A stretch of 64,000 nt of DNA from an uncultured Roseivirgaceae bacterium (GTDB lineage: Bacteria > Bacteroidota > Bacteroidia > Cytophagales > Cyclobacteriaceae): assembly GCA_964551335.1 (NCBI GenBank), contig CAZKCO010000025.1, positions 12,134-76,133 of the forward strand, written 5' to 3'. Each line of letters starts with the position of its first letter. The first letter of the stretch is position 1. Under the pieces are notes generated by a model, which did not search any database, was not told the DNA's origin, and saw only the letters and a program-made list of their open reading frames with translations. Position numbers and translations under genes: made by a program. Below, piece by piece: positions 31,122 through 48,275 of the stretch.

Positions 31122-31952
31122 ATGAACTACGAAGGAAATCTTCATAAAATGCAAACTACCTTGGCCGATCCGGTTCAATACACTCTTAAGCTGAATGGAG
31201 AGCTAGTGCATATGAATGATTTTATCGATAAAACCATTACCATAAAATTTGATGGACAGATCAATTGCATTAACTGCGGGCGTTTAACAAAAAAATCTTT
31301 TGGGCAGGGCTTCTGTTATCCCTGTTTTATCAAATCGCCTCAAAATTCAGAATGCATCATTCACCCAGAACTTTGTCGGGCCCATCTGGGAGAAGGGCGC
31401 GATCCGGAGTGGGAGAAAGAACACCACCTGAAACCTCACATCGTATATCTAGCTCAAACTGACGTAATAAAAGTGGGAGTAACCCGCGACACCCAAGTAC
31501 CAACTCGATGGATTGACCAGGGTGCCTGGAGGGCGGCACCGATCGCGCAGGTACCCTATCGCTCTCTGGCGGGAGGTATTGAGGTAGCATTAAAAGCGTA
31601 CTTCACCGATAAAACCAACTGGCGAAATATGCTAAAAGACGAGACCAACGATGAATTAGACTTGGATGAATATCGACACAGCGTTGAAAATCAACTACCA
31701 GAGGAGTTTCAAAAGTACTACAAGACTGATACTCCAGTGACTGAAATTCATTACCCAGTTTTGGCTTACCCAAAGAAAGTAAAGAGTGTGTTGCTGACCA
31801 AGCAACCAGAAATTTACGGTCGACTTATTGGAATTCGCGGTCAGTACTTAATTTTTGGCGACGGACGGGTCTTTAATATCCGCAACCATAGCGGATACTA
31901 TATACAACTATCGACGGAGTCGCTGAATACCTCTTGGTCTAATAAAATATGA
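31122..31952 (+). CDS. DUF2797 domain protein
   Basis: C..CG..TKKSFGQGFCYPC, KVGVTR..QVPTRWIDQGA. Start moved to ATG 31122. Confidence 0.85.
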   Translation: MNYEGNLHKMQTTLADPVQYTLKLNGELVHMNDFIDKTITIKFDGQINCINCGRLTKKSFGQGFCYPCFIKSPQNSECIIHPELCRAHLGEGRDPEWEKEHHLKPHIVYLAQTDVIKVGVTRDTQVPTRWIDQGAWRAAPIAQVPYRSLAGGIEVALKAYFTDKTNWRNMLKDETNDELDLDEYRHSVENQLPEEFQKYYKTDTPVTEIHYPVLAYPKKVKSVLLTKQPEIYGRLIGIRGQYLIFGDGRVFNIRNHSGYYIQLSTESLNTSWSNKI

Positions 31953-32178
31953 TGTGGACTCGCTAATAAAACTCTAGCCTGCATACTGTACTTTTATCCT
32001 TACAGTAAATGCAAGATAAAAACCTACTTCAGTTAGTATCCAAATGCATGGTCCACGCACACCAAAAGGCAAAAACAAAGATTTTGTTATACTCAATATC
32101 GGTCAAATTCAATAGTAGTGTGATTTTGAGAACTTGATAATGTATTAAGTTATTGATTCATCAAATTTTGCTCTCAAT

Positions 32179-32213
32179 AAAAAAAGACTTTACACGATCG
32201 TGTGAAGTCTTTT
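32179..32213. terminator. Bidirectional rho-independent terminator
   Basis: AAAAGACTT-TACACG-AT-CGTGTG-AAGTCTTTT with A/T tails, between convergent genes. Confidence 0.8.
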
Positions 32214-32248
32214 AGAAGATTAGAAGTTTATATTCTACAACAGATCCT

Positions 32249-33625
32249 TTAGTTCGTTTGGGCCTCGGTCAGCTTTTGTTTTAGCTCTTCTATCTGAGTT
32301 TGGTATTCACGTTCTTTGCGGTGCATCTCTTCCTGAGTAGCTTGCAACTCTTCCATATTCTGCCGCATCTCTTCTTCTTGAGCTCGCATCTCCTCACTCT
32401 GCTCTTGGGCCTGCTCCAGCAAATGTTGAGTCTGTTGCATCACTCGCTGACTCTGAATATAAGCTGCCATTACTTCACCCAAACGTTCTAGAAATTCTAT
32501 CTCATGCTCCTCGAAGTTACTAAAGCTAGCTAGCTCCAAAAGCCCTTCTACCTCTTCGTTTACTATCAAAGGCACGATAATTAGTGAAGTAGGAGTAGCT
32601 TTTCCCAACCCTGAGGTAATGTTCACGTAATTAGGGGGAATTTCCGTGAAATGTAAGTATTTAGCTTCCAGGAAGGCTTGACCAACTAGACCTTCACCGG
32701 GTATAATCGTTTTCTCAATATACTTCTTTCGCTCATAGGCGTAGCAAGCCGCCAGTTGAATTGTAACTTCATCATCGCTGCTATCTACGACAAATAATCC
32801 ACCTTGATTGGCCTTCAGGTATTTGACTGTCGCTGAGATTAGCTGGTCAAACAGGTTTTCTTTACTGCCGGTATGTCGAACGATTTCAGAGATTTGAGCA
32901 ATACCTTCGGCCGCCCACTGCCGCTTACGCTCTTCGGCTTGGGCAGCTTCTAGCTCTTTAGTTTTTTGGGCATTCTCTTTTTGTTGTTTTAGCAATACTT
33001 GGTTACGTTGCTCTGCTTCTATCCGAGACTGCTCACTTTCTTTTTCAGATTGTCTCGTAATAAATATCATGCCCATTACACAACCAAATCCACCAAGAAT
33101 AGCTAGTGAAATTGTAACCGTGCTAAGCCATCCGCTTCGTAAAGGTGTGGAGTCATAAACAGAAGTATACCAAGTTTTTGTGATTGGAAAAGTAAGGATG
33201 ACAATTGAACATAAAATTATTGTAGACAATATAAAAGTCCGTTCGCGAGAATCAAAGATAACAAAGGGTATCAGCGCAAAGCTTAATTCAATTAGGTACA
33301 GACTTGGCAGAGGATCGTCGGCTGCCCCACTCAATGCAGCATTATAAGAAGCACCGAGAATGATTGGAACAATTGAAATGATTAGCCGAGAATATTTTAT
33401 GCCACCTAGATGATTAGCCCATATACATCCCAAACTCACAATGGCCCCACCTATGGGAAAAACTACCAAAGACGGAAAGTAGAACAGCGTTATAACTGTA
33501 AAAGGAATAGCAATGACAGTAGCTAAAGTGAATGCAACGATATTTGTCGGTTGCACCCTCTTTTTAATATAGTCAGGTAGATCGTCATGTAAACCGGCTT
33601 CTACAATACTTCTAAATACTGACAT
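32249..33625 (-). CDS. Membrane sensor: ~6-TM N-terminal domain, GAF domain and coiled-coil tail
   Basis: TM region; ANQGGLF, ACYAYERKK, GEGLVGQ, ITSGLG..P GAF; QSEEMRAQEEEMRQNMEELQATQEE tail typical of Cytophagales GAF proteins. Confidence 0.85.
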   Translation of the reverse strand: MSVFRSIVEAGLHDDLPDYIKKRVQPTNIVAFTLATVIAIPFTVITLFYFPSLVVFPIGGAIVSLGCIWANHLGGIKYSRLIISIVPIILGASYNAALSGAADDPLPSLYLIELSFALIPFVIFDSRERTFILSTIILCSIVILTFPITKTWYTSVYDSTPLRSGWLSTVTISLAILGGFGCVMGMIFITRQSEKESEQSRIEAEQRNQVLLKQQKENAQKTKELEAAQAEERKRQWAAEGIAQISEIVRHTGSKENLFDQLISATVKYLKANQGGLFVVDSSDDEVTIQLAACYAYERKKYIEKTIIPGEGLVGQAFLEAKYLHFTEIPPNYVNITSGLGKATPTSLIIVPLIVNEEVEGLLELASFSNFEEHEIEFLERLGEVMAAYIQSQRVMQQTQHLLEQAQEQSEEMRAQEEEMRQNMEELQATQEEMHRKEREYQTQIEELKQKLTEAQTN

Positions 33626-33929
33626 GTTTGAGTTTATTTAATAATATTAAGCCCAAAAATGCCATACTAAATGGAAAAAAACTTGCAACAATTGCAATAT
33701 ATCTCTCTAGTGTGCGATAAAGATTTTTTTTATAGAAAGTTGAAAATTAAACTCAAGAAAATGCGGAAAAAAACACTAGATACCAGTGAAGTTGAAGCAG
33801 AAATAGGAGAAAAACTATATCAAACGGCGCCACTGACCTTTATCGATAATAAACCAGTTAATCAGCAGCATGGTAATATTCATTCCAGTAATTCATAATT
33901 TGCCGATAAAATAGATTATTCAACCATTT

Positions 33930-34745
33930 CTAACTGCTAGGCTGCTCAAAAATAGAAATGTTTAATCCATCAAAAATCCATGCTGAAGGATAACATTCAG
34001 TCATTTTAGGCAGCACAATTGAACAGATACAATGATTTACCCAAAAGGAAATTGCTTTGTATTGAGTGAAGTTTTTAAAGTAACTCACCGTATAGTTATT
34101 CTTTATAATCAATTGGTTGACCTCATATACATGCAGTGGAGTTGTGAGTCCGGTACCCAGTACCTTAGAAAGAGCTTCTTTGGCTGTCCATATACGAGTA
34201 TAAAAGGACAAATCACTTTCACGGGATTCAGCTCGCAATATCTTTTCAATTGGGGTAGTCATCTGAGCAATAGAATCTAAGCTTTCATTTTTTGGGAATT
34301 CTAGATCTAAACCCATTGGATGCTCCCGCGGAAAAATAATACAGGCCCCAATGCCTCCGGTGTGAGCTAAGCTTATGTTTGGTATGGGGTGTTTGGTATA
34401 ACTGATGAGTGGTTGTCGGAAAATGCCTTTTTCAACTGCGATAGCCTTTATGTCTGTTTCTTCAAGGTAATGAGCTAAAGCGCATTTAGCCGTATACCTA
34501 CTTAACAAATATTGATGCCTCGCTCTTTCGTAGTATAGTTGGTCAAAGTGCTTCTCTTCACTAAGATGTAAATACTGATGCCTATTGCTATTTAAAACGG
34601 AAAAAGGAGGAGAGGCAAATCCTAATAAGGACCTGCCACTCCAGCCACTTCTTTGTAGTGGAATCTGCACTCCCGAAAAGTGTTGCTCTGGAACACTTAT
34701 TAAATGTGCAAAGTCCGAGGAAGCGTTTAACAAAGAATCTTTCAC
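33930..34745 (-). CDS. Sfp-type 4'-phosphopantetheinyl transferase
   Basis: YLLSRYTAK, ISLAH, MGLDLE, WTAKEALSK. Confidence 0.9.
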   Translation of the reverse strand: MKDSLLNASSDFAHLISVPEQHFSGVQIPLQRSGWSGRSLLGFASPPFSVLNSNRHQYLHLSEEKHFDQLYYERARHQYLLSRYTAKCALAHYLEETDIKAIAVEKGIFRQPLISYTKHPIPNISLAHTGGIGACIIFPREHPMGLDLEFPKNESLDSIAQMTTPIEKILRAESRESDLSFYTRIWTAKEALSKVLGTGLTTPLHVYEVNQLIIKNNYTVSYFKNFTQYKAISFWVNHCICSIVLPKMTECYPSAWIFDGLNISIFEQPSS

Positions 34746-34829
34746 ATTATAATAAGCTTGTTCCTATCAACACCTAAACAAATAAAGATGAAGTTCAGAA
34801 TACTTTATCTTTAAGATTTCTGATAAAAG

Positions 34830-35468
34830 CTAAACGCTACTGTATAACTTTTCCGACAGCTCGACACCATTGACTTTTTTGACCTCGCTGACCTGTTCGC
34901 TTTTACCTAAGCTAATCAATGCAGCTCCTGCAACAGCAATCACTACGGCGAAAAAGTAAGTAAGCGGACTCAGAATACTTTCTCGGTAAACATCTGCGTT
35001 TACTTCCGGAGCGTCTAAGAGTACGTTTAGCCCCTGCTGCCCTAAAATAATGGCATAACAGATGGCCAATGTAGCGATCAATTCACCTTTCTCTTTAAAA
35101 TCATACAGCAAGAATGGAATAATGCCCATCGCAAACTGAGAGAGATACAATGAAGTGATAACATGCTCTCCTGGTTGTATGGCGTAGGCGTGAAATAAAG
35201 TAGTAAACAATAACATCTGGAATGAACAGATAAACCTTGCAATGGCAGTTGCCCCGTAAAAGTTAAGAGCCAAAACTACGAGCGAGCCTACCAAACAGCC
35301 TAACGGATAGATTACTAATGAAGGAAAGTATAAATACAAAATACCGGAGTATATTACTCCAATTAAGAGGGTCAACAACGCTACCATATTGGTTAGTCGG
35401 ACCTTTCGCTTATGATTGGTGGACATAGCAGAGTCAACACCTAATGTCAATAAATTCATAATTAACAA
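34830..35468 (-). CDS. Stand-alone ~6-TM protein paralogous to the N-terminal membrane domain of the GAF sensor
   Basis: Shared blocks with 32249-33625: K.V..TN.VA, YFPSLV, SLYL, IPF...D..E. No cytoplasmic output domain. Confidence 0.8.
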   Translation of the reverse strand: MLIMNLLTLGVDSAMSTNHKRKVRLTNMVALLTLLIGVIYSGILYLYFPSLVIYPLGCLVGSLVVLALNFYGATAIARFICSFQMLLFTTLFHAYAIQPGEHVITSLYLSQFAMGIIPFLLYDFKEKGELIATLAICYAIILGQQGLNVLLDAPEVNADVYRESILSPLTYFFAVVIAVAGAALISLGKSEQVSEVKKVNGVELSEKLYSSV

Positions 35469-35500
35469 GATTTAGGGATGGATAAAGCAGATATTTAGAA

Positions 35501-35544
35501 CGTAAAGGGAGGGTAGTATTTTCACACCACCCTCTAGCTTTACG
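35501..35544. other. Intergenic stem-loop directly after the PKS stop codon
   Basis: CGTAAAG-G-GAGGGT...ACCCTC-TAG-CTTTACG inverted repeat; no strong U-tract. Confidence 0.55.
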
Positions 35545-35545
35545 A

Positions 35546-38500
35546 TTATTTAGTTTGAACTAACGATAAGGTGTCATCCTTCATAGCTTGGGTAAGCCGC
35601 TCTAGAACTAACTCTCGGTTACGACTCAGGAACCAATGGTCACCTTCTACCACTTCTAAGGTAAATTCCGAGCTGGTTTGAGCTTCCCACTGACGAACTT
35701 CGTCTACTAACACTACTTCATCCTGTGTAGCGGCAAAGGCGGTGATAGGACAATGCAATTTCTCCAGCTCCTCGTAGCGATAGCTCATAATCAGCGGCAT
35801 ATCCTTCCGCATCACCGGCAGAATACGCTTCAGGAATTCTACATCATCAATATAGTTCATCAAGGATAGTAATCGCTCCTCCGAGTTGGTTTCTACCGCT
35901 GTTTGGCTGATAACATCCCTCTCTTTCCACTTAAGGGTTAGCTGAGGTGCAATAGTACCAGTGATAAACAGGTGCTTGGCTTCAATACCATACTGTGCCC
36001 GAATATACCGGATCAGCTCAAAGCCAACCATACCTCCGAAGCTATGCCCCATGATGATAAACGGTTTATCTAAATAAGGACGAATTACCTGAGCCAAATC
36101 AGGAATCAGCTTGAGCATATCCTCATAGGGCTCTTCGCCACTACGGTTCTCCCGCCCCGGCAACTGGAAGGCTAACACATCAGTATTCTCAGGAGCATTG
36201 TAGATGAAGTGACTGAACATGGATGCTCCCGCACCTACCGGATGGAAACAGAATACTCGTTGCTTTACATCCTGCTGATTTCGCTTATTGCGCACTAGCC
36301 ATTTTCCTCCAACTACTTCAATATCTGCTTCGCTCGCAATTCCTGATGCATCAGCATTACCAGCTTCTGACGACTGCTTGTTCACTACAGTTTCGGTCAA
36401 TTCTTCTAGGAGTTGCTCAGCCAGCTCCATCAGGCTCGGCCCTTTGGCAATTTTCATGAGCGGGAAATTCACTTCCAGCTTCTGCTGAATCCAGTTCCGT
36501 AGCTGATTCAGCATCAGAGAGTCCAGCCCCATCGCCGATATAGAAACATCGGTTTCAATCTGATCAACGGTGGCCCCTAAAATTTTAGCCAGAGATTCGG
36601 CCAACAGGCTCCGCAGTAGTGGCACCTGTTGATCTTCAGCCGCATTTTTAACTTGGTCGGCTAGGGTAGAATTACTGTTACTTCCCCCGCCCTGCTGGGC
36701 TTCTTCCAGAAAATGAGCAAAACGTACATCCTGTTGTAAATGTGAGAAGAAACTTCTAAATCGTTGCCAATCCAAGTTCGCCGCCATTCTAACGGCTGGT
36801 TGCTGCAACAATACAGTTTCTATTTTCTGGGTAACCTGGGTTAAAGAAAGTGGCAACCAACCCTGATTCGCCAGTACATTCAGTACGTTCCCCCCCTCTT
36901 TAGACATTCCGGCGTACATTCCCAACACACCCAGGTTGATCGAAGAGCCTGCCAATCCTTGAGACTGGCGATACTGAGCCAAACGATCCAAGAAGTTGTT
37001 AGCCGAAGAGTAGTTCGACTGCCCAGGTAAACCAAATAGTGAGGATATTGAGGAAAGTGAGAGGAAAAAGTCCAGCGATGCATTCTGAGTTGCCTGATGT
37101 AAATTCCAAGCTCCCAACACTTTTGGACGAAATACTTTCATAAATCGCTCAGTATCTGTGTTCATAAGGGTAGCATCATTGAGTACGGCCGCACTGTGGA
37201 TGATACCCTTCAGCGGAGGTAAGTGCTTCTCAATGTACTCAACCACTCCATTTACTGCCCGGCTGTCGGTAATGTCCAGATTCATGGGGTACAGTTCTAC
37301 CCCCTGCTGTTTCAAATTCTCCGCAATTTGGAAGTCTCCCTGATGCTTATAGCCACTTCGACTTAATAGTACTAATCGTCTAGCGCCTTTCTCAGCCAAC
37401 CATTGGGCTAACATCAAACCGAACCCACTAGCGCCACCGGTAAGCAGGTAAGTAGCATCAGCACTAAGCTCTAGCTCCTGAGCCGGAAGTACTTCAATTT
37501 CATCATCGGTCTGCATAGTCACCACCAGCTTACCGATATGCCCTCCTTTGCTAAGTACCCGTAGGGCATCTGCCAATCGAGAAACCGGATAAACCTGATG
37601 AGGATGAACCGATAATTGCTGTTTGGTAAACAGGCTAACTACTTCCTGATACAGCCGCTTAGCCAGTTTAGGCTTCTGAAGCATCAACCGATCAACATCT
37701 ACGGCATGATACGATAAGTTTTCGCCGAAGCGCTTTAAAGCCAGCTTTGTGTCCTGGTATATATCTGCTTTACCAATCTCGATGAATCGACCAAAAGGTG
37801 CCAAACACTTAATGCTCTGGGTGATACCTTTTCCTGAAAGTGAATTCAGCACGATATCAACTCCTCGTCCTTGAGTTGCCGATCTAACCTCGTCGGCAAA
37901 TTTCAGGCTACGCGAGTCAAAAACATGTTCAACTCCTAATGAGCGCACAAATTTGCGTTTTTCTTCGGTACCGGCCGTGGCAATAATATTGGCTCCCGCT
38001 AATTTTGCTAAGCGGATTGCAGCGATTCCTACCCCTCCCGAAGCAGCATGGATCAAGACAGTATCATCTTCGCTTAACCGGGCCAGATAATTTAATGAGT
38101 AATAGGCAGTCAGGTACGCCACAGTAATGGTAGCCGCTTCTTCAAAGGAAAGATTTACGGGCTTTTTCACCACGCAGGAAGCCGGAGTCACTGTAAATCC
38201 CGCGTAGGAATTAGCCGCCCAAGCCATTACCTCATCGCCTTCAGCAAATTCGGTGACATTTTTACCTACTCGGCTGATCACTCCTGAACATTCCAATCCG
38301 AGATTTTTGCCGGCTATACCTCCCTGCACTGCTTCATCGTTAAGCAGCCCCATCACATTCATAATATCCTTGAAATTTAATCCGGCCGACCGAACTTCAA
38401 TTTCTACCGAATCGTCAGCCAATTCAGCACTAACCACTTGACGGAACTCAATACCATCCAGGGTGCCGTACTCCTTCACTGATGCTCGATAAGCTTTACC

Positions 38501-41500
38501 CCGAGCCGAGCAGGTTATAGTAGCTTGTTGCTCAGCCGATTCTTCGGTTACTGCCTGTAGTTTACGAACCAGCAACTTACCGTGTCGTAGGGCAACTTCT
38601 GGGTAGATTGGCTTTTCGACTAGAGTAAAGTTCTCGTAGAGTGTCTCAATCTCGACCTTATTTACTTTCGCCGACAAATCTACTAGACTGGTCTTAATAA
38701 AAGGAAACTCGTTCATCAAAACCCGCCCCATTCCGTAGAGTGCTGCTTGATTGATGTTAACAACTTCTTCATCAACAATACGGTCGGCACCTTGAGTAAG
38801 CAGATATAGTCTTGGTTCACTTCCGTGATTAACAATAGCTCTAAGTGCATTAGTGGTAGCCTCCGCTAACGCTTCTTGTTGCTCGTCTAGAGCCTTCAAC
38901 GAAATTTCCGGATCAAATACACTATCTAATCCCCAAAGGTACATTACCCGACGTACTTTGAAGCCTTTGCGGGTTACTTCGGCCAGTACCCGTTCAATAT
39001 CCTCCTGAGATGAAGGATTCACTCGGAAGTGAGTTGAAGAAAGCTCTTCGTAGCTCGCTCCTTTTTCAACTAGCATCGGAAGCAGATTATCACCGCTAAA
39101 TTTCTCTAGCAGGGTCTGAGTCACCCCCTGTTGATCAACGAACAGCAGGCATCCTCCGGTAGCATCGCCATTCACTCGGGTCATCGCAGTTGGCTCCGAA
39201 GTTTCGGGAGCTTTTTCCCATGTATAGGCGTACATTCCGCGATATAATTCGTTAGCCGACTCTCCTCTAGAACCCTCGATGTATTTACAGGTTAGTCCCT
39301 GAATTTCAGCGACTAAGGTTCCGTCTTCGTTCAAAATAAAGTAGTCTCCTCGCAAATTGGCATCACTAGCTTCCGTTACACGGATATAACTCCAAATCTT
39401 GGTGTTGGGCTTGCTGTGAAGTTTAAACCGCTGGATATAAACGGGTAAATAGATCCCACGTTTTTCACCCTCTCTGCTTTCTTTCGCCGCAAAAATAGCG
39501 TGCAATGAAGCGTCTAATAAAGCCGGATGGAAACCGTACTCTTCAATTCCGTGATGCAGATTCTTGCTGAGTTTGATACCGGCCAGAATCTCGCTATCCC
39601 CTTTCCACAATTGCTGAATACAACGGAATGCTTCTCCGTACTGAAGCCCTCCCTCTTTGAGTTCAACGTACAGGTTGGAAACTGAAACGGTTTCGGTAAG
39701 CCGCTCCTGAATTTCGGGTAAATTAACCGATGAAGATATGAATGAGTCACCTAAATGATTCATCACTCCTCGGGAATGCATCGTCCAGGGAGTATCATCT
39801 CCTTCGCCCTTGCTAAAGATACGGTAACTCCCTTCATCAGAAGCCACCTCCAGTCGAATGTCCATTGACTCACCTTCGTCTGGTAGAAAAAGTGCCGACT
39901 CAAAGTGAATATCTTCTAAAAACCCGAATGATTCACCAAATGAAGACTTTGCCGCGGCAAATGCTACTTCTAGGTGCCCGGTTCCCGGATAAATAACGGT
40001 ACCGTCTACTTTATGATCCTCGATATAGGGATGCACTTTCGTATCCAGCTGCAACTTCCAAATAAAATGGTTAGGATTGGCTGCCGAACGCTCTACACTA
40101 GATAAATGCGGGTGAATCACTTCGCCTAAACGTTCGTTGGCATGTTCAGGAACTTCAAACCAGTAGCGTTCGTGCTGCCAGGAGTATGCCGGAAGGTCCA
40201 CTAACGCCCCGTTCGGGTTTAGCTGCTTCCAATCAATACAATAGCCCTGAGTAAACAACATTCCTAGCGACCCCATCAGAGTAATTGCTTCATCTTCTTT
40301 TCGGCGCAAGGAGGGGACAATAAACGCCGCTTTAACAGATTTGGCTTTCAGTAGATCATTCGCCCCGATGGTTAGCACTGGGTGGGGAGCAATTTCAATG
40401 AACGTATCAAAACCATCGTCGGCCATCCGTGCCAGAGCATCAGTGAAGTAGACTGGCTCCCGTACGTTTTGGTACCAGTAGTTACTATCCAGATGTGACC
40501 CATCCTCTTGCTTACCGGTTACTGTGGAGTACAACGGAATAGTAGCTTCGCTAGGCTCCAGATGATCTAGTGATTCAATTAGCTCTGCTTTTAGCGGCTC
40601 CATATGGTGACTATGGAACGGGACATTAACCCTTAAAAAACGACAGAAGACATCTTTCTGCTCCAGTTGCTGAGCAATTTTCTCCAGCGGTTCTGAATCT
40701 CCCGAAAAGGTCAGCATGTTGGGACCGTTGATTGCTGCAATGGATACTACATCCTCAAAACCTATAATTGCCTCGCGAGCCTCTGCTACCGTAAGGGCAG
40801 CAGCCAGCATCTTGCCTTTCCCGGTAGCTCGGTTTTGCCCCCGGCTACGATGATAGATCACTTCTACCGCCTGGTCAAGCGTTAACGATCCACTGGCATA
40901 GGCGGCGGCCACTTCTCCAATAGAATGTCCTACACAACCTTCGGGAGTTACTCCCCATGATTTCCAGATTTCGGTAAGTCCGATCTGCACCGCCATGATA
41001 GCCGGTTGAGCAATCCTAGTTTCGCTTACCCGGGAAGTAGCTTCATCCCGGCTCATTTCTTCCAGCAACGACCAATCAGCTAACTGCTGGAACCGCTGGT
41101 CAATCTGTTCAATTACCTCTCGGAAAATAGACGAAGATTCAATTAACTGCTGCCCCATGGCATACCATTGAGGCCCCTGACCCGAAAAGATGAAACCTAA
41201 CTTAGGCTTATGACCTTTTTTTGCCTTCTGCTCGAACATGCCTGGCCGGGTTTCTTCCCCAAGATAGGCCTCAAGTTTTTCCCGAAGTTCTTCTTTGGTT
41301 CGAGCAGCCACAGAAAGTCGATAATCAAGTGCTGAACGGCGGGCTCCAGCACTGTAACAAATATCTGACAGGGAATTAGGTGTGTTCCCCAAATACTCAA
41401 CGTACTGGGTGACATTATCCCGGAGCGCTTCTTTAGTTTGAGCTGATACGGTAAATAATTCTACCCTTTCGGCTTCACTTCCACCGGAAATATCCTTCTT

Positions 41501-42901
41501 AGATTTAGTTTGCGGTTGATAAGCCTGTAATACAGCATGAGCATTAGTTCCACCCGCTCCGAAGGAGTTAACCCCACCAATAATAGGGTGTCCGTTTTGA
41601 GGTAAGTCAACCAGTTCGGTTGGCACTTGCAAGCGATAATCGTCAAAGGGAATCTTTGGGTTTGGATTCTCGAAGTGTAGGTTTTGGGGAACCTGCCTAT
41701 TTTTCAATACCAGTGACAATTTGATCAGACCAGCAATACCGGCGGCAGATTCTAAGTGGCCTATATTGGTTTTTACCGAACCCATCCAGCATTTTTCGTT
41801 CTCAGAACGGTTTTTACCAAATACTTCGCCGAAGGCCCGCGTCTCAATTGGGTCACCTACAGGAGTACCCGTTCCGTGGGCTTCAATGTAGGCTACGTTT
41901 TTTGGGTCTACTCCAGCCTTTTCGTAAGCAGTTTCCAGCATCGCTACCTGAGAAGAAAAACTCGGAACTGTAAAACCTTCTTCGGTATGACCATCTTGAT
42001 TCACGGCAGTTCCGAGAATAGTGGCGTAGATATGATCACCATCAGCCTCTGCTCTCGATAGCGGCTTGAGCATAACAACTCCGCAACCCTCACTACGAAC
42101 GTAACCATTGGCACGGCTATCAAAAGTTTTGCAATAGCCATCAGGAGACAGAAAATTACCCTTCGACATCATGATCGACGACTCAGGGCGAAGCAAGGCA
42201 TTAACTCCACCGGCCAAGGCTTGGTCGCTCTCGCCTGACCAGATACTCTGACAAGCCAGATGCACCCCCACAAGAGAAGAAGAGCAGGCCGTATCTAGGC
42301 TAACGCTAGGGCCTTTTAGGTTATAAACGTAAGAGATACGGTTGGCAATGGCGGTAAGCGAAGACCCCATCGGTACGTGGGGGGTAATGGCGTTACGCTG
42401 CTCGGTTGAGACTTGAATATCCCAGTAGTCGTTCATAAAAACACCCATAAATACCGCCGTTTTGGTGTCAGATACAGATTCCATCGGAATTCCAGCATCT
42501 TCTAACGCCTGGTAGGTTACCTCCAGCAGCATTCGTTGTTGCGGATCAATGCATTGGGCTTCAGCAGGAAACATACCAAAAAATGCAGGATCAAAGTGAC
42601 TTATATCTTTGACAAATCCGCCTTTTTTGTTCTTAATTTTACCAGCCTTATTGTTATCCGGATCGTAAAATTTTTTCAAATTCCAACGATCGGGCGGCAC
42701 ATCGGTGATGGCGTTTTTTCCTTCGGAAAGCAATTTCCAGAAAGACGATGGATCATTCACTTCGCCCGGGAAGCGACACCCAATGCCAACAATGGCAATG
42801 GGCTCGCGAGGATTGGTAGAATCATCCTTCCGGGTGGAATCGTTCTCTACAGACACAGCTGTCGCAGGAACACCATGGGTGGGGGCACTAAATGTAGACA
42901 T
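35546..42901 (-). CDS. Single-module highly reducing type I PKS (KS-AT-DH-ER-KR-ACP-TE)
   Basis: KS DTACSSS/HGTGT/NIGH; AT GHSIG/VPFHS; DH HKVDGTVIYP and HPALLD; ER LIHAASGGVG; KR GGASGFG/HSAAVLND/YSSAN; ACP GLDSL; TE GHSFG/GDHW. Confidence 0.95.
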   Translation of the reverse strand: MSTFSAPTHGVPATAVSVENDSTRKDDSTNPREPIAIVGIGCRFPGEVNDPSSFWKLLSEGKNAITDVPPDRWNLKKFYDPDNNKAGKIKNKKGGFVKDISHFDPAFFGMFPAEAQCIDPQQRMLLEVTYQALEDAGIPMESVSDTKTAVFMGVFMNDYWDIQVSTEQRNAITPHVPMGSSLTAIANRISYVYNLKGPSVSLDTACSSSLVGVHLACQSIWSGESDQALAGGVNALLRPESSIMMSKGNFLSPDGYCKTFDSRANGYVRSEGCGVVMLKPLSRAEADGDHIYATILGTAVNQDGHTEEGFTVPSFSSQVAMLETAYEKAGVDPKNVAYIEAHGTGTPVGDPIETRAFGEVFGKNRSENEKCWMGSVKTNIGHLESAAGIAGLIKLSLVLKNRQVPQNLHFENPNPKIPFDDYRLQVPTELVDLPQNGHPIIGGVNSFGAGGTNAHAVLQAYQPQTKSKKDISGGSEAERVELFTVSAQTKEALRDNVTQYVEYLGNTPNSLSDICYSAGARRSALDYRLSVAARTKEELREKLEAYLGEETRPGMFEQKAKKGHKPKLGFIFSGQGPQWYAMGQQLIESSSIFREVIEQIDQRFQQLADWSLLEEMSRDEATSRVSETRIAQPAIMAVQIGLTEIWKSWGVTPEGCVGHSIGEVAAAYASGSLTLDQAVEVIYHRSRGQNRATGKGKMLAAALTVAEAREAIIGFEDVVSIAAINGPNMLTFSGDSEPLEKIAQQLEQKDVFCRFLRVNVPFHSHHMEPLKAELIESLDHLEPSEATIPLYSTVTGKQEDGSHLDSNYWYQNVREPVYFTDALARMADDGFDTFIEIAPHPVLTIGANDLLKAKSVKAAFIVPSLRRKEDEAITLMGSLGMLFTQGYCIDWKQLNPNGALVDLPAYSWQHERYWFEVPEHANERLGEVIHPHLSSVERSAANPNHFIWKLQLDTKVHPYIEDHKVDGTVIYPGTGHLEVAFAAAKSSFGESFGFLEDIHFESALFLPDEGESMDIRLEVASDEGSYRIFSKGEGDDTPWTMHSRGVMNHLGDSFISSSVNLPEIQERLTETVSVSNLYVELKEGGLQYGEAFRCIQQLWKGDSEILAGIKLSKNLHHGIEEYGFHPALLDASLHAIFAAKESREGEKRGIYLPVYIQRFKLHSKPNTKIWSYIRVTEASDANLRGDYFILNEDGTLVAEIQGLTCKYIEGSRGESANELYRGMYAYTWEKAPETSEPTAMTRVNGDATGGCLLFVDQQGVTQTLLEKFSGDNLLPMLVEKGASYEELSSTHFRVNPSSQEDIERVLAEVTRKGFKVRRVMYLWGLDSVFDPEISLKALDEQQEALAEATTNALRAIVNHGSEPRLYLLTQGADRIVDEEVVNINQAALYGMGRVLMNEFPFIKTSLVDLSAKVNKVEIETLYENFTLVEKPIYPEVALRHGKLLVRKLQAVTEESAEQQATITCSARGKAYRASVKEYGTLDGIEFRQVVSAELADDSVEIEVRSAGLNFKDIMNVMGLLNDEAVQGGIAGKNLGLECSGVISRVGKNVTEFAEGDEVMAWAANSYAGFTVTPASCVVKKPVNLSFEEAATITVAYLTAYYSLNYLARLSEDDTVLIHAASGGVGIAAIRLAKLAGANIIATAGTEEKRKFVRSLGVEHVFDSRSLKFADEVRSATQGRGVDIVLNSLSGKGITQSIKCLAPFGRFIEIGKADIYQDTKLALKRFGENLSYHAVDVDRLMLQKPKLAKRLYQEVVSLFTKQQLSVHPHQVYPVSRLADALRVLSKGGHIGKLVVTMQTDDEIEVLPAQELELSADATYLLTGGASGFGLMLAQWLAEKGARRLVLLSRSGYKHQGDFQIAENLKQQGVELYPMNLDITDSRAVNGVVEYIEKHLPPLKGIIHSAAVLNDATLMNTDTERFMKVFRPKVLGAWNLHQATQNASLDFFLSLSSISSLFGLPGQSNYSSANNFLDRLAQYRQSQGLAGSSINLGVLGMYAGMSKEGGNVLNVLANQGWLPLSLTQVTQKIETVLLQQPAVRMAANLDWQRFRSFFSHLQQDVRFAHFLEEAQQGGGSNSNSTLADQVKNAAEDQQVPLLRSLLAESLAKILGATVDQIETDVSISAMGLDSLMLNQLRNWIQQKLEVNFPLMKIAKGPSLMELAEQLLEELTETVVNKQSSEAGNADASGIASEADIEVVGGKWLVRNKRNQQDVKQRVFCFHPVGAGASMFSHFIYNAPENTDVLAFQLPGRENRSGEEPYEDMLKLIPDLAQVIRPYLDKPFIIMGHSFGGMVGFELIRYIRAQYGIEAKHLFITGTIAPQLTLKWKERDVISQTAVETNSEERLLSLMNYIDDVEFLKRILPVMRKDMPLIMSYRYEELEKLHCPITAFAATQDEVVLVDEVRQWEAQTSSEFTLEVVEGDHWFLSRNRELVLERLTQAMKDDTLSLVQTK

Positions 42902-42929
42902 AATTTAGGTAGTTAATCTTACAATTTTG

Positions 42930-42956
42930 TACAACTATCAATATAGAATAGTTGTA
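42930..42956. promoter_or_regulatory. Perfect 9-bp inverted repeat with 9-bp spacer upstream of the PKS
   Basis: TACAACTAT-N9-ATAGTTGTA, 29-55 bp before the PKS ATG. Confidence 0.5.
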
Positions 42957-43151
42957 GATCCAATAATTTCTTACTTAGGTATAAGCGATTTTAGCTTAGG
43001 AAATAGTAGTAAAGGGCAATGGTAGTACGTCTCTCGTCAGTGTATGAATACAAACCTATACTTTGTGATAATGAAAAAATAACCGCATACGGAACTTTGC
43101 TTACATTCGTAAGAAAAAGCTTATTCAGGTATATATAACCTAAAATATAAT

Positions 43152-43176
43152 TATTATAGTTATATATACTATAATA
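43152..43176. promoter_or_regulatory. Second 9-bp inverted repeat in the PKS upstream region
   Basis: TATTATAGT-N7-ACTATAATA; lies in very AT-rich DNA, so chance occurrence is possible. Confidence 0.3.
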
Positions 43177-43463
43177 TTAATTATAATACATTTCGCAAAC
43201 TGAACATATGCTAGTCTCTAACCAATTTACAATGATGCATTATCGAGATGTAAGTTTTTTTTGACTTATTCATATTTTTCTGATAATAGAATAAGGTTCA
43301 TCAATTGAGTCACTCAGGTTTTGTTTTTAGGAATTATCTCTTAAATAATCTACCAAAAGGTATTTTTCATTATTCAAATAGTACCAATATTTGAAAAATA
43401 TTCTACGATTTTTTCTAATCAGAATACCCGAGGGATTTATTGATGTCTACAACGTTTTGGAAA

Positions 43464-44804
43464 CTATCTAATTAAGGACTTTGCCAATATCTTTCGTAAA
43501 TACCAGAAAGAAATTAGGGCACCGAGTAGATAACTAAGAGCAATTCCTATAAAAATACCGGCAATGCCACCCAGAAAGGAACCTAAGTAGGCCAAAGGGA
43601 GGTACAAGACAAACATCTGTATAGCCGAAATAACGAAAGCTGGCAATGGCTTGCTCATCGTATTCAAGCTGGCGTTCCCAATCAAATATATTCCTTGGAA
43701 ACCAAAGCTGAGTGGAAGAATCGTTAAGTAAAGTGAAACTTTCTCGACTACCGGCTGACTATCGGTAAAAATCCGGGCTACAGGCTCAGCCAGTAACCAG
43801 AGCACCAGAGCTGCTAGAGCACCCCACAGCAGGGAAAAGCCACTTCCGAAAGTAATTGACTCCCGAATTCTTCCCCAAGCGTTTTTTCCTACATTTTGTC
43901 CAATGAAAGGAGCAATAGCCGCCGAAAGCGCAAAAAAAACACTGGTACCCAATACTTCAATCCGACTGCCTACTCCGAACGCAGCCACAGCGTCAGGGCC
44001 ATAAGTGGCTAATAATGCAGTAGCCCCTCCTACCGCCAGTGGTACGATCATCCGGGAAATGCCAGTAGGAAGGCCAATGTACAAAATAGCCCGCCAACAG
44101 CCCATCAGCACCGATCTGGAAGGAATGTCAAAGGTAATCAGTCGCTCGCGGTATCGGAGAATGTAGAGAGAAACTAGCAGGGTTAGCCCTCGGGAAACAG
44201 CGGTTGCTAACGCAGCTCCCTGAAGCCCAAGAGCAGGGACCTGCCCCCAGCCAAAAATCAGTAAGGGATCTAGGACTGCATTGATGAGCACGGCAAAAAG
44301 CATGATATAACTAGGAGTCTGGGTGTCGCCGGTTGCCCGAATAGCACTATTGCCAACAAAAGGTACGATTACGAAGAGTATAGTAAAATACCAAATCTCC
44401 ATGTACTCACGTACTAGCGGCAACACTTCTGGCCCTGCTCCCAGCGCAGTAAATAAAGGATTGATGGTAGAAAGCCCAATAAATACACAGATCAGAACTA
44501 ATATGATGGCAAGAAACAGACTGTCCGTAGTTTCCCGAGCTGCTTTACCCAAGTCATTTCTGCCGAACGACTGAGAGATAAGGGCGGTAGCCCCAATTCC
44601 AATTCCTTGTACCAAGCTAAAAATTACCATAATTACCGGAAAGGTAAAGCTCAAAGCAGCCAGTTCATTTTCTCCCAGTTTTCCGATAAAGTAGGTATCT
44701 ACCAAGTTGAAACCCACCATGCTCAATATCCCCACCACCATCGGCAACGTTAGTTGAAATAGAGTGAGTGGAACGGAGCCCTGGGTTAAGTCCTTACGCT
44801 TCAA
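43464..44804 (-). CDS. MATE family efflux transporter
   Basis: NLVDTYFIGKLG, RATGDTQTP, LDPLLIFG, GLQGAALAT; about 12 TM helices; TTG start. Confidence 0.92.
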   Translation of the reverse strand: MKRKDLTQGSVPLTLFQLTLPMVVGILSMVGFNLVDTYFIGKLGENELAALSFTFPVIMVIFSLVQGIGIGATALISQSFGRNDLGKAARETTDSLFLAIILVLICVFIGLSTINPLFTALGAGPEVLPLVREYMEIWYFTILFVIVPFVGNSAIRATGDTQTPSYIMLFAVLINAVLDPLLIFGWGQVPALGLQGAALATAVSRGLTLLVSLYILRYRERLITFDIPSRSVLMGCWRAILYIGLPTGISRMIVPLAVGGATALLATYGPDAVAAFGVGSRIEVLGTSVFFALSAAIAPFIGQNVGKNAWGRIRESITFGSGFSLLWGALAALVLWLLAEPVARIFTDSQPVVEKVSLYLTILPLSFGFQGIYLIGNASLNTMSKPLPAFVISAIQMFVLYLPLAYLGSFLGGIAGIFIGIALSYLLGALISFWYLRKILAKSLIR

Positions 44805-47303: not shown

Positions 47304-48275
47304 ATGATAAAACTTATCAGCTTTCTGTCTTCAAAGCATCACCCGCAAGTAGGTATCGTAGATGGAGAAGATATTCATCCCCTGACAGGAATAAATAGCG
47401 TCTATGAACTGTTACTTAAAGCTGAAGCCAAACAGATTTCGTTAATAAAAATGGTTTACGAACATCGTCGAGAAAATGTTCTTAACTATAATCTCATTCA
47501 TCAAGAACAGCGCCTTCTAGTGCCCTTCTCTCACCCTGATCCCTACCATACTTGGATTACCGGCACGGGGCTAACCCACCTGGGGAGTGCCTCCTCAAGG
47601 GATGCTATGCACCAAGCCGAAATCACTGATTTAGAATCAAACCAGTCTGATTCCATGAAAATGTTTAACCTGGGATTAAAAAACGGGCGCATGTCTGGTG
47701 ACCAACCTGGGGCTCAACCGGAATGGTTTTATAAAGGCAACGGTCTTTCGGCTATCTCACCCGGTCAAGCAATTTCTCAGCCTTCGTTTGCCTTGGATGG
47801 CGGCGAAGAACCCGAACTAGTGGGATTATATTACATCAACAGAGCCGGAAACCCCCAGAGAATAGGCTTTGCCTTGGGCAATGAGTTTTCTGATCATCGG
47901 ATGGAGAAGATAAATTACCTCTATTTGGCCCATTCCAAGCTGCGGAAATGCTCCTACGGCCCGGAGTTACTACTTGGAGAGTTACCCGAACGGATTGTCG
48001 GCAAAAGTAAAATCTGGCGCAATGAGCAGTTACTCTGGGAAAAAGAGTTTCTTACCGGCGAAGCTCATATGAGCCATAACCTGGCTAATCTGGAATACCA
48101 CCACTTTAAGTATGATCTGTTTCGGCAACCGGGAGATGTACACGTACATTTTATGGGGACTTCGGTACTTAGTTTTACTGATCAGATAGAAACTCAAGAA
48201 GCCGATATCTTCGAGATTTCTGCGGACTGTTTCAGTCATCCACTTATCAATCCACTAAGAGTTGAGAAACCATAG
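47304..48275 (+). CDS. FAH-family protein, AraD1/GguC-like
   Basis: TGTGLTHLGSA, QPEWFYKG, GGEEPE, GNEFSDH, NYLYLAHSKLR. Confidence 0.85.
   Translation: MIKLISFLSSKHHPQVGIVDGEDIHPLTGINSVYELLLKAEAKQISLIKMVYEHRRENVLNYNLIHQEQRLLVPFSHPDPYHTWITGTGLTHLGSASSRDAMHQAEITDLESNQSDSMKMFNLGLKNGRMSGDQPGAQPEWFYKGNGLSAISPGQAISQPSFALDGGEEPELVGLYYINRAGNPQRIGFALGNEFSDHRMEKINYLYLAHSKLRKCSYGPELLLGELPERIVGKSKIWRNEQLLWEKEFLTGEAHMSHNLANLEYHHFKYDLFRQPGDVHVHFMGTSVLSFTDQIETQEADIFEISADCFSHPLINPLRVEKP

Follow-up and report, generated by a model that had tools for sequence, protein, structure and literature searches.

A small Cytophagales cassette of a stand-alone, fully reducing type I polyketide synthase, a phosphopantetheinyl transferase and a six-transmembrane GAF protein

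What a bacterium with a complete type II fatty acid synthase (FAS II) makes with one isolated, fully reducing type I polyketide synthase (PKS), and to what end, is the question raised by the locus described here. The locus lies in a 64,000-nucleotide stretch of DNA from an uncultured Roseivirgaceae bacterium of the Cytophagales (contig CAZKCO010000025.1, positions 12,134 to 76,133; hereafter the window), in which a single long open reading frame (ORF) on the minus strand, 35546..42901, encodes a PKS of 2451 aa (P0001) according to the ORF list and its translation. An earlier reading of the same DNA from its letters alone (hereafter the sequence-only reading) had given exactly these coordinates. 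On balance, we lean slightly towards the view that the gene belongs to a self-contained cassette that makes a saturated, fatty-acid-like specialised lipid and that is functionally tied to a cognate sensor combining a six-transmembrane (6TM) domain with a GAF domain. The steps that lead to this view, and the alternatives that compete with it, are set out below.

The reading frame is not a chance feature, as its 2451 codons hold eight ordered Pfam domains with E values from 1e-11 to 1e-94, and its start codon is backed by an 89%-identical relative (P0003) with a matching N-terminus. Pfam, together with colinearity to mycocerosic acid synthase (MAS, 9d2z) over residues 33-2171, gives one module with the order ketosynthase (KS), acyltransferase (AT), dehydratase (DH), a structural subdomain of the ketoreductase (psiKR), enoylreductase (ER), catalytic ketoreductase (KR), acyl carrier protein (ACP) and thioesterase (TE). 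This is the order proposed in the sequence-only reading, which had also described every catalytic motif as intact, and a motif scan of the translation bears out both statements. The KS (aa 33-411, 41669..42805, minus strand as are all domains of the gene; PF00109 8e-94, PF02801 2e-41) carries DTACSSSL203 with Cys206 and the histidines of EAHGTGT340 and KTNIGH377. The AT (aa 570-883, 40253..41194; PF00698 3e-79) carries ETRIAQPA627, GQG, GHSIGE658, the carboxylate-binding Arg at Ser+25 and VNVPFHS758, and the DH (aa 930-1210, 39272..40114; PF21089, PF14765) carries HKVDGTVIYPG963 (HxxxGxxxxP), YGEAF1088 and HPALLDA1125 (DxxxH). The psiKR (aa ~1252-1410, 38672..39148) is a weak match to PF21394, with 25.3 bits against a cut-off of 26.9, and is followed by the ER (aa 1496-1794, 37520..38416; PF08240, PF00107, PF13602) with its NADPH motif HAASGGVG1618. 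The catalytic KR (aa 1816-1993, 36923..37456; PF08659 2e-61) shows TGGASGFG1821, HSAAVLND1902 and S...YSSAN1950 (Ser/Tyr/Asn), and the L-N-D within the second of these confirms the previous B-type-like call. The ACP (aa 2100-2163, 36413..36604; PF00550 3e-11) has its phosphopantetheine Ser2128 in GLDSLM2125, and the C-terminal thioesterase (aa 2215-2437, 35591..36259; PF00975 8e-33) has Ser in GHSFGG2285, Asp in TQDEV and His in GDHWF2420. The DH-to-ER gap of 285 aa contains a psiKR match alone and is too short for a methyltransferase (MT), so that none is present in this PKS, in agreement with the earlier description of a layout without pseudo-MT. Relatives that do bear an MT exceed the PKS in length by 340-370 aa.

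The sequence-only reading had allowed for the case that this module needs others encoded elsewhere, and the genome (7.07 Mb in 71 contigs, 100% complete) provides none. Ketosynthases matching PF00109 number two in the whole genome, namely the PKS itself and a 423-aa FabF adjoining acpP. Further PKS modules elsewhere are thus ruled out and, because no other PKS ketosynthase exists in the genome, the PKS acts alone; from this isolation we infer that its single module is used iteratively. The genome also has one type III PKS (C33:42061-42489, minus strand), which was considered as a partner of the kind found in the ArsABCD system of Azotobacter and set aside, this single copy being unlinked to the type I PKS and located on contig C33. 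A type III PKS is likewise listed for Reichenbachiella genomes in which the type I PKS has an orthologue (PMC10752948).

A full FAS II is present elsewhere in the genome (acpP, fabF, fabZ, two fabH, fabD, fabG and a fabI-like gene). The 200 other genomes sampled across the Cytophagales include eight with a full-length orthologue of the PKS (53-63% identity, 2410-2540 aa) and one more with an MT-bearing variant. Outside the order, relatives are found in Planctomycetota and, singly, in Methylobacter and other metagenome-assembled genomes (MAGs). Across its carriers the cassette sits in unrelated genomic contexts, and the PKS is an accessory, horizontally mobile gene. Since FAS II is complete and the distribution is patchy, the product should be specialised rather than bulk lipid, as had been expected in the sequence-only reading. 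A housekeeping type I FAS that replaces or duplicates FAS II would, like animal FAS and like this PKS, have every reducing domain and a terminal thioesterase, but this explanation is effectively refuted by the completeness of FAS II, by the occurrence of orthologues in only ~5% of the genomes sampled from the order and in none of the 12 from the window's own family, and by a KS that is far from animal FAS. Some carriers have two copies of the gene: one MAG holds two divergent cassettes (L004 and L014) whose PKSs are 57% identical, each with its own phosphopantetheinyl transferase (PPTase) and TM-GAF protein, and a plasmid of Fulvitalea axinellae carries two PKS copies (P0042, P0047).

No product has been assigned to any family member in the literature that we searched, and searches for MAS-like PKSs in Bacteroidetes or iterative type I PKSs in Cytophagales returned nothing. 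The orthologue in Reichenbachiella ulvae ABR2-5 (49% identity, at 5,358,720-5,365,913 of its contig) sits centrally in the antiSMASH region 5,338,720-5,385,913, a 'Type I PKS' region that a published table gives without a similar known cluster (PMC10752948). By this proxy, nothing points to the close MIBiG match that the sequence-only reading had named as a possible refutation.

The nature of the product can be approached through the kinship of the enzyme. Its closest solved full-length relative is the Mycobacterium tuberculosis MAS; the two proteins align colinearly in one piece (residues 33-2171 against 6-2103), with ~1050 bits. The top NCBIfam model is Pks2 (NF041183, sulfolipid) with 1296 bits, below the equivalog cut-off of 2400. 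The enzyme therefore has a MAS-like architecture without MAS orthology, and the earlier description of a MAS layout with an added terminal thioesterase is supported by the colinearity with 9d2z and by the fused TE. When the KS is compared with solved KSs, the scores are 475 bits for CurL, 460 for PikAI, ~377 for MAS and 293-295 for animal FAS, which places it nearest to cis-AT modular PKSs such as CurL and far from animal FAS. The domain order given in the sequence-only reading stands, whereas its animal-FAS framing is one of its weaker parts. The order KS-AT-DH-ER-KR-ACP-TE is the canonical one of a fully reducing terminal PKS module (PMC12184294). As this order is canonical for reducing modules and the KS is far from FAS, the shared order is no sign of kinship with FASN.

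The thioesterase departs further from the animal enzyme. Residues 2196-2451 find their best solved relatives in RifR (8e-33), RedJ (2e-22), M. tuberculosis TesA (6e-22) and human OLAH/TE2 (7e-18), and in the same comparison with solved structures neither the FASN TE nor the DEBS TE was matched at E<=0.001. Its Ser, Asp and His line up with the catalytic triad of RifR. These alignments show that the terminal domain is a fused type-II-like thioesterase of the RifR/TesA/OLAH family and not of FASN type, so that the previous parallel with metazoan FASN does not extend to it. The domain shares the triad and the closest similarity with the type II thioesterases, and differs from them in being fused to the ACP in a 2451-aa chain rather than free-standing. 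RifR, RedJ, TesA and OLAH are free-standing proteins that serve mostly as editing or chain-release helpers, whereas here the domain follows the ACP and is the sole release function.

The building block is indicated by the AT. The sequence-only reading had regarded the AT motif as unusual and the extender unit as impossible to call confidently; the first point is not upheld, and the second holds only in part. The motifs ETRIAQP, GHSIG and VPFH are kept across the Bacteroidota clade, including relatives that bear a C-methyltransferase. Of the 121 proteins tallied, 94 have VPFH[S/C], so that the motif is not peculiar to the window gene. The Planctomycete-type PKSs, which form a separate clade, have VAYHS at this motif. 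In the alignment with methylmalonyl-specific ATs, ETRIAQP stands in place of RVDVVQP, GHSIG in place of GHSQG, and VPFH in place of YASH. In DEBS, replacing Ser by Phe and Gln by a hydrophobic residue is reported to lead to products with malonyl units (PMC6090053). The three motifs thus allow a malonyl call with moderate confidence, and malonyl-CoA is, judging from them, the probable extender unit. Likewise, three relatives with an inserted S-adenosylmethionine (SAM)-dependent methyltransferase (~2800 aa) retain VPFH, which fits an AT that supplies unbranched units.

The same evidence bears on the alternative that the product is a multi-methyl-branched acid built from methylmalonyl-CoA, as MAS makes. 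MAS is the best solved full-length relative, Pks2 is the top NCBIfam model, and the top scores of the AT taken as a whole go to methylmalonyl-specific ATs. Nevertheless, none of the three diagnostic motifs has the methylmalonyl form, the C-methyltransferase-bearing relatives keep VPFH as expected for unbranched supply, and the Pks2 score is far under its cut-off, and we consider a methyl-branched product improbable.

A further alternative concerns the starting point of the chain. MAS-type enzymes extend long-chain primers, and the PKS has no loading domain while FAS II is present to supply primers; the module might therefore be non-iterative, adding one or a few units to a long-chain primer derived from FAS II and releasing a slightly longer acid. 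We would give this little weight, because no fatty acyl-AMP ligase (FAAL) or acyl-CoA synthetase is conserved beside the gene in 34 loci, because one-unit elongation is already within the capacity of FAS II, and because the orphan single-module PKS Ca_c3355 has been shown to iterate (PMC5686105). An iterative synthase of unbranched chains is thus the reading carried forward here.

What the product may be for is suggested by the neighbouring genes. When all ORFs of 33 related loci and the window were clustered, three families recurred across the 34 loci: the PKS itself, a PPTase (21 loci) and a TM-GAF protein (16 loci), typically in the order PKS, PPTase, TM-GAF. The two partners, which the sequence-only reading had not mentioned, are the most informative feature of the locus. 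Across the same loci no tailoring enzyme, acyltransferase, glycosyltransferase or exporter is conserved with the PKS. The PPTase of the window (271 aa, 33930..34745, minus strand) is an Sfp-type 4'-phosphopantetheinyl transferase by its ACPS-superfamily domain (PF01648 5e-10), with weak matches to HetI and AusB and a size in keeping with the ~230-270 aa of this type; a PPTase adjoins the PKS in 21/34 loci.

The TM-GAF partner is a sensor-like membrane protein of 458 aa (P0122; 32249..33625, minus strand; GAF_2 PF13185 2e-12; 16/34 loci) in which a 6TM domain is followed by a GAF domain and a coiled coil. An AlphaFold (AF2) model built from 14 cassette-linked homologues (pLDDT 84) has six TM helices, the sixth of which runs unbroken into a long helix, then a GAF domain, then a long C-terminal helix. 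Foldseek searches with this model returned GAF domains (E 1e-8, probability 1.0) and gave no match for the 6TM part. A GAF/coiled-coil unit with the near-invariant QAQEEEMRQNMEELQATQEEM occurs in at least six proteins of the genome behind varied input domains (6TM, dCache-HAMP twice, and another membrane domain); the paralogues lie at C32:50989-52509, C23:37607-39316, C29:26593-28605, C5:134967-136580 and C4:249026-252481. One of them continues into PAS and SpoIIE domains, and most copies end without an output domain. Because the unit recurs behind other inputs, the 6TM part appears to be the input module and the GAF/coiled coil the transmitter.

The sensor and the synthase occur together in genomes. 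Of the 8 PKS-positive genomes, 7 have a close orthologue of the 6TM domain (identity of 37% or more), against 1 of ~192 PKS-negative ones; in the 200-genome sample this co-occurrence has a Fisher p of ~1e-10, not corrected for relatedness. In six of the seven genomes the sensor lies within 2 kb of the PKS, the seventh being a fragmented assembly, and PKS variants that lack the ER also retain the sensor. Splendidivirga corallicola is a case in which the sensor is unlinked. The Planctomycete-type clade (L037:8001-21656, L016:9947-23286) has another arrangement, in which the PKS is followed after a gap of 0-30 nt by a ~2000-aa protein that combines Ser/Thr kinase, AAA_16, GAF, HisKA, HATPase, receiver and Hpt domains. 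In this clade the PKS family has a signalling partner of another, second kind, which again contains a GAF domain.

Further evidence for a functional tie comes from the exchange of parts between cassettes. Two related MAGs carry the cassette at one chromosomal site (L040:6001-15852 and L038:6001-13910), where the flanking DNA is 88-91% identical. At the protein level, identity is 99% for the GntP permease encoded next to it and 89% for the KS-AT halves of the two PKSs. At the AT/DH boundary (~residue 905) this similarity stops at a sharp breakpoint, and a replaced stretch extends from there to the end of the sensor gene, with DNA identity resuming ~200 bp beyond it. Within this stretch, over which the alleles are roughly 40-48% identical, the PKS tails (DH to TE) are 48% identical and the sensor TM domains 36% identical, and one allele has an ER while the other does not. 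The L040 locus has an extra gene, encoding a DUF2306 protein, between the PKS and the sensor.

Trees of four partitions (KS-AT, PKS tail, sensor TM domain, and GAF/coiled coil) from 14 cassettes present the same picture. The trees of the PKS tail and of the sensor TM domain share several strongly supported groups (99-100 support), namely (L038, L039) with L030, (L003, L040) and (L009, L017); the group of L004 with the window is also present in both, with weaker support in the TM tree (90/85). The other two partitions conflict with these groups, the KS-AT tree pairing L038 with L040 and the GAF/coiled-coil tree pairing L039 with L040 (100/99). The correlation of pairwise identities between sensor TM domain and PKS tail is modest (partial r 0.4 against 0.2). 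The partition trees therefore indicate that recombination has reshuffled the KS-AT and GAF parts while keeping the product-shaping half of the PKS together with the membrane domain of the sensor.

These observations can be combined into a working scheme. The Sfp-type PPTase, encoded two genes downstream, would attach the phosphopantetheine arm to Ser2128, and the AT would load malonyl units. The KS, the B-type KR, the DH and the ER would then act in repeated rounds on the one ACP, giving a saturated and probably unbranched chain, which the thioesterase would hydrolyse to a free fatty-acid-like acid. Since the neighbourhood has no conserved tailoring enzyme, this acid is probably either the end product or altered by unlinked enzymes. 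The 6TM domain of the sensor would most likely read this lipid and pass a signal on through the GAF/coiled-coil transmitter; a less likely alternative is that it monitors the level of the lipid. The lipid is possibly a signalling molecule. Taken further, and only tentatively, the cassette may be a lipid signal-receptor system of the Cytophagales, with another form in Planctomycetes, in which an iterative PKS writes the signal and the 6TM-GAF protein reads it, synthase tail and TM domain being swapped together as 'lipid pherotypes'. Under this same tentative proposal the chemistry would be set by the exchangeable DH-(MT)-(ER)-KR-ACP-TE half, and some genomes would run two channels.

Several observations weigh against a malonyl-built, self-released lipid tied to the sensor. 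The AT as a whole scores 222 bits against the methylmalonyl-specific DEBS AT3 and 175 bits against the malonyl AT of CurL, and the VPFH acyltransferase motif was not found in the searchable literature. Type-II-like thioesterases are often editing rather than release enzymes. The sensor ends in a coiled coil and has no recognisable output domain of the kinase, cyclase or DNA-binding kind. A sub-clade comprising Flammeovirga, Persicobacter, Reichenbachiella and Saccharicrinis has the PKS and the PPTase without the sensor, and the synthase can therefore function without it. Finally, PKS tail and sensor TM domain lie side by side on the DNA, and linkage alone could account for their joint inheritance.

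Some of these points are shared by the alternative of an envelope lipid with a structural or protective role, or of a fatty acid with antimicrobial action, with the 6TM-GAF protein serving as a regulator, homeostasis or self-protection sensor rather than as a receptor of cell-to-cell signals. Other FAS-like PKSs, such as mycobacterial MAS and Azotobacter ArsA/D, make envelope lipids; the window and its closest relative have a gene for a MATE exporter upstream of the PKS, and the Flammeovirga/Reichenbachiella sub-clade manages without a sensor. On the other hand, the PKS has no conserved acyltransferase, glycosyltransferase or lipid exporter with it, L004 alone has the MATE gene in common with the window, and ER-less and MT-plus alleles on closely related KS-AT halves co-vary with the TM domain of the sensor. 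Because the reducing domains of these alleles co-vary with the sensor TM domain, specificity pairs fit better than a bulk lipid. An envelope or antimicrobial role is thus possible, though we doubt it, and a specialised lipid with a cognate sensor is the reading that we prefer.

Other features of the locus can be described briefly. Between the PKS and the PPTase lies a gene for a 212-aa membrane protein (34830..35468, minus strand) that is a GAF-less paralogue of the sensor TM domain (31% identity to P0122 over 124 aa, E 4e-19). It is found at this position only in the window and in its closest relatives, L001 and L004, and is 94% identical in L004, being better conserved than the PKS (89%). 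A hairpin with an 11-bp stem (35509-35534, minus strand) stands 12 nt past the PKS stop, ahead of the 212-aa gene, and could be a partial terminator or a processing site inside the presumed operon. On the other side of the PKS, the MATE exporter gene (43464-44804) was rejected as a member of the cluster, since it is common only to the closest relative, L004. Further away, an AraD1/GguC-family protein (47304-48275, plus strand; NF040903, 469 bits, above the cut-off) belongs to sugar-acid metabolism and is unrelated to the cassette.

The 560-bp region upstream of the PKS contains blocks that are kept in relatives whose PKSs are 81-89% identical. In the upstream alignment, one block conserved in three relatives includes TAGGTTTG (43051..43058, minus strand), a putative -7 box that matches the Bacteroidetes -7 promoter consensus TAnnTTTG. 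The conserved upstream sequence, which covers 43041-43063 of the window (minus strand), also includes ATGTAAGCAA. A perfect 9-bp inverted repeat, TACAACTAT/ATAGTTGTA (42930..42956, minus strand), lies 28 nt before the ATG in the putative leader, and its arms are conserved in L004. An Rfam search of 31900-43600 gave no match at E<=1, and a scan for sigma-70 promoters and terminators gave counts no better than those of shuffled sequences.

The enzyme is of a known kind, the stand-alone, highly reducing type I PKSs of bacteria that have a MAS layout. What is new is a family without a characterised member, with a fused TEII-type domain, in a compact cassette with a PPTase and a co-varying 6TM-GAF sensor. 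To our knowledge, Bacteroidota are not known for polyketide-type lipid signals, and we are aware of little on how the gliding Cytophagales of sea and soil communicate. The cassette is small, consisting of synthase, activating enzyme and sensor, and it is present in cultured strains such as Rhodocytophaga aerolata (KACC 12507), Xanthocytophaga flavus (NT2B1) and Catalinimonas alkaloidigena. Because it is small, occurs in cultured strains and brings its own PPTase, both product and response can be tested directly. In addition, the natural swap of domain blocks at the AT/DH boundary, which places ER, ER-less or MT-added halves on near-identical KS-AT halves, offers a template for PKS engineering. 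If the link to the sensor is true, the cassettes would represent matched small-molecule/receptor pairs of a new class; if it is false, they would still illustrate cleanly that bacteria have a family of stand-alone, fully reducing PKSs that is widespread and uncharacterised.

Comparison with known systems places the cassette between several of them. With animal FASN the PKS shares the catalytic order ending in a thioesterase and the expectation of a saturated chain, but it has no pseudo-methyltransferase, and its TE matches human OLAH (TE2) and not the FASN TE. MAS (9d2z, 5bp1, 5bp4) is closer, as both enzymes are one colinear KS-AT-DH-psiKR-ER-KR-ACP module without a methyltransferase, and MAS is an iterative, fully reducing lipid synthase that works beside the ordinary FAS of its cell, as the window PKS likewise would. 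The two differ in phylum and in their AT motifs, which are malonyl-like in the window and methylmalonyl-like in MAS. MAS has no fused TE and is off-loaded by a separate acyltransferase; unlike in MAS systems, the locus clustering revealed no conserved FAAL or Pap-type partner beside the PKS. The 'Sup' PKS of sponge symbionts and the Azotobacter type I FASs ArsA and ArsD are also bacterial, FAS-like single-module synthases, with special fatty acids as their proposed or demonstrated products. Sup has a methyltransferase and lacks a TE, and ArsA/D is split over two proteins that pass the chain to type III PKSs; we know of no report of a 6TM-GAF partner for either.

The nearest functional precedent is Ca_c3355 of Clostridium acetobutylicum, an orphan single-module PKS that iterates on malonyl-CoA and whose C14 acid controls differentiation, its products being clostrienoic acid and clostrienose (PMC5686105). 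Both enzymes are single-module with a predicted malonyl AT, and Ca_c3355 has no other biosynthetic gene beside it. It differs in its KS-AT-DH-KR-ACP composition, which has neither ER nor TE and needs unlinked enzymes. The organisms are unrelated, and no dedicated PPTase or membrane sensor has been reported beside Ca_c3355. Finally, in the staphylococcal agr and the Bacillus comQXP systems the signal-shaping part and the sensing domain of the receptor vary as a block between conserved flanks, much as synthase tail and sensor TM domain do here. We would like to emphasize that this is an analogy only, since those systems pair peptide signals with histidine kinases, whereas in the present cassette a receptor that carries no kinase domain would read a lipid made by a PKS.

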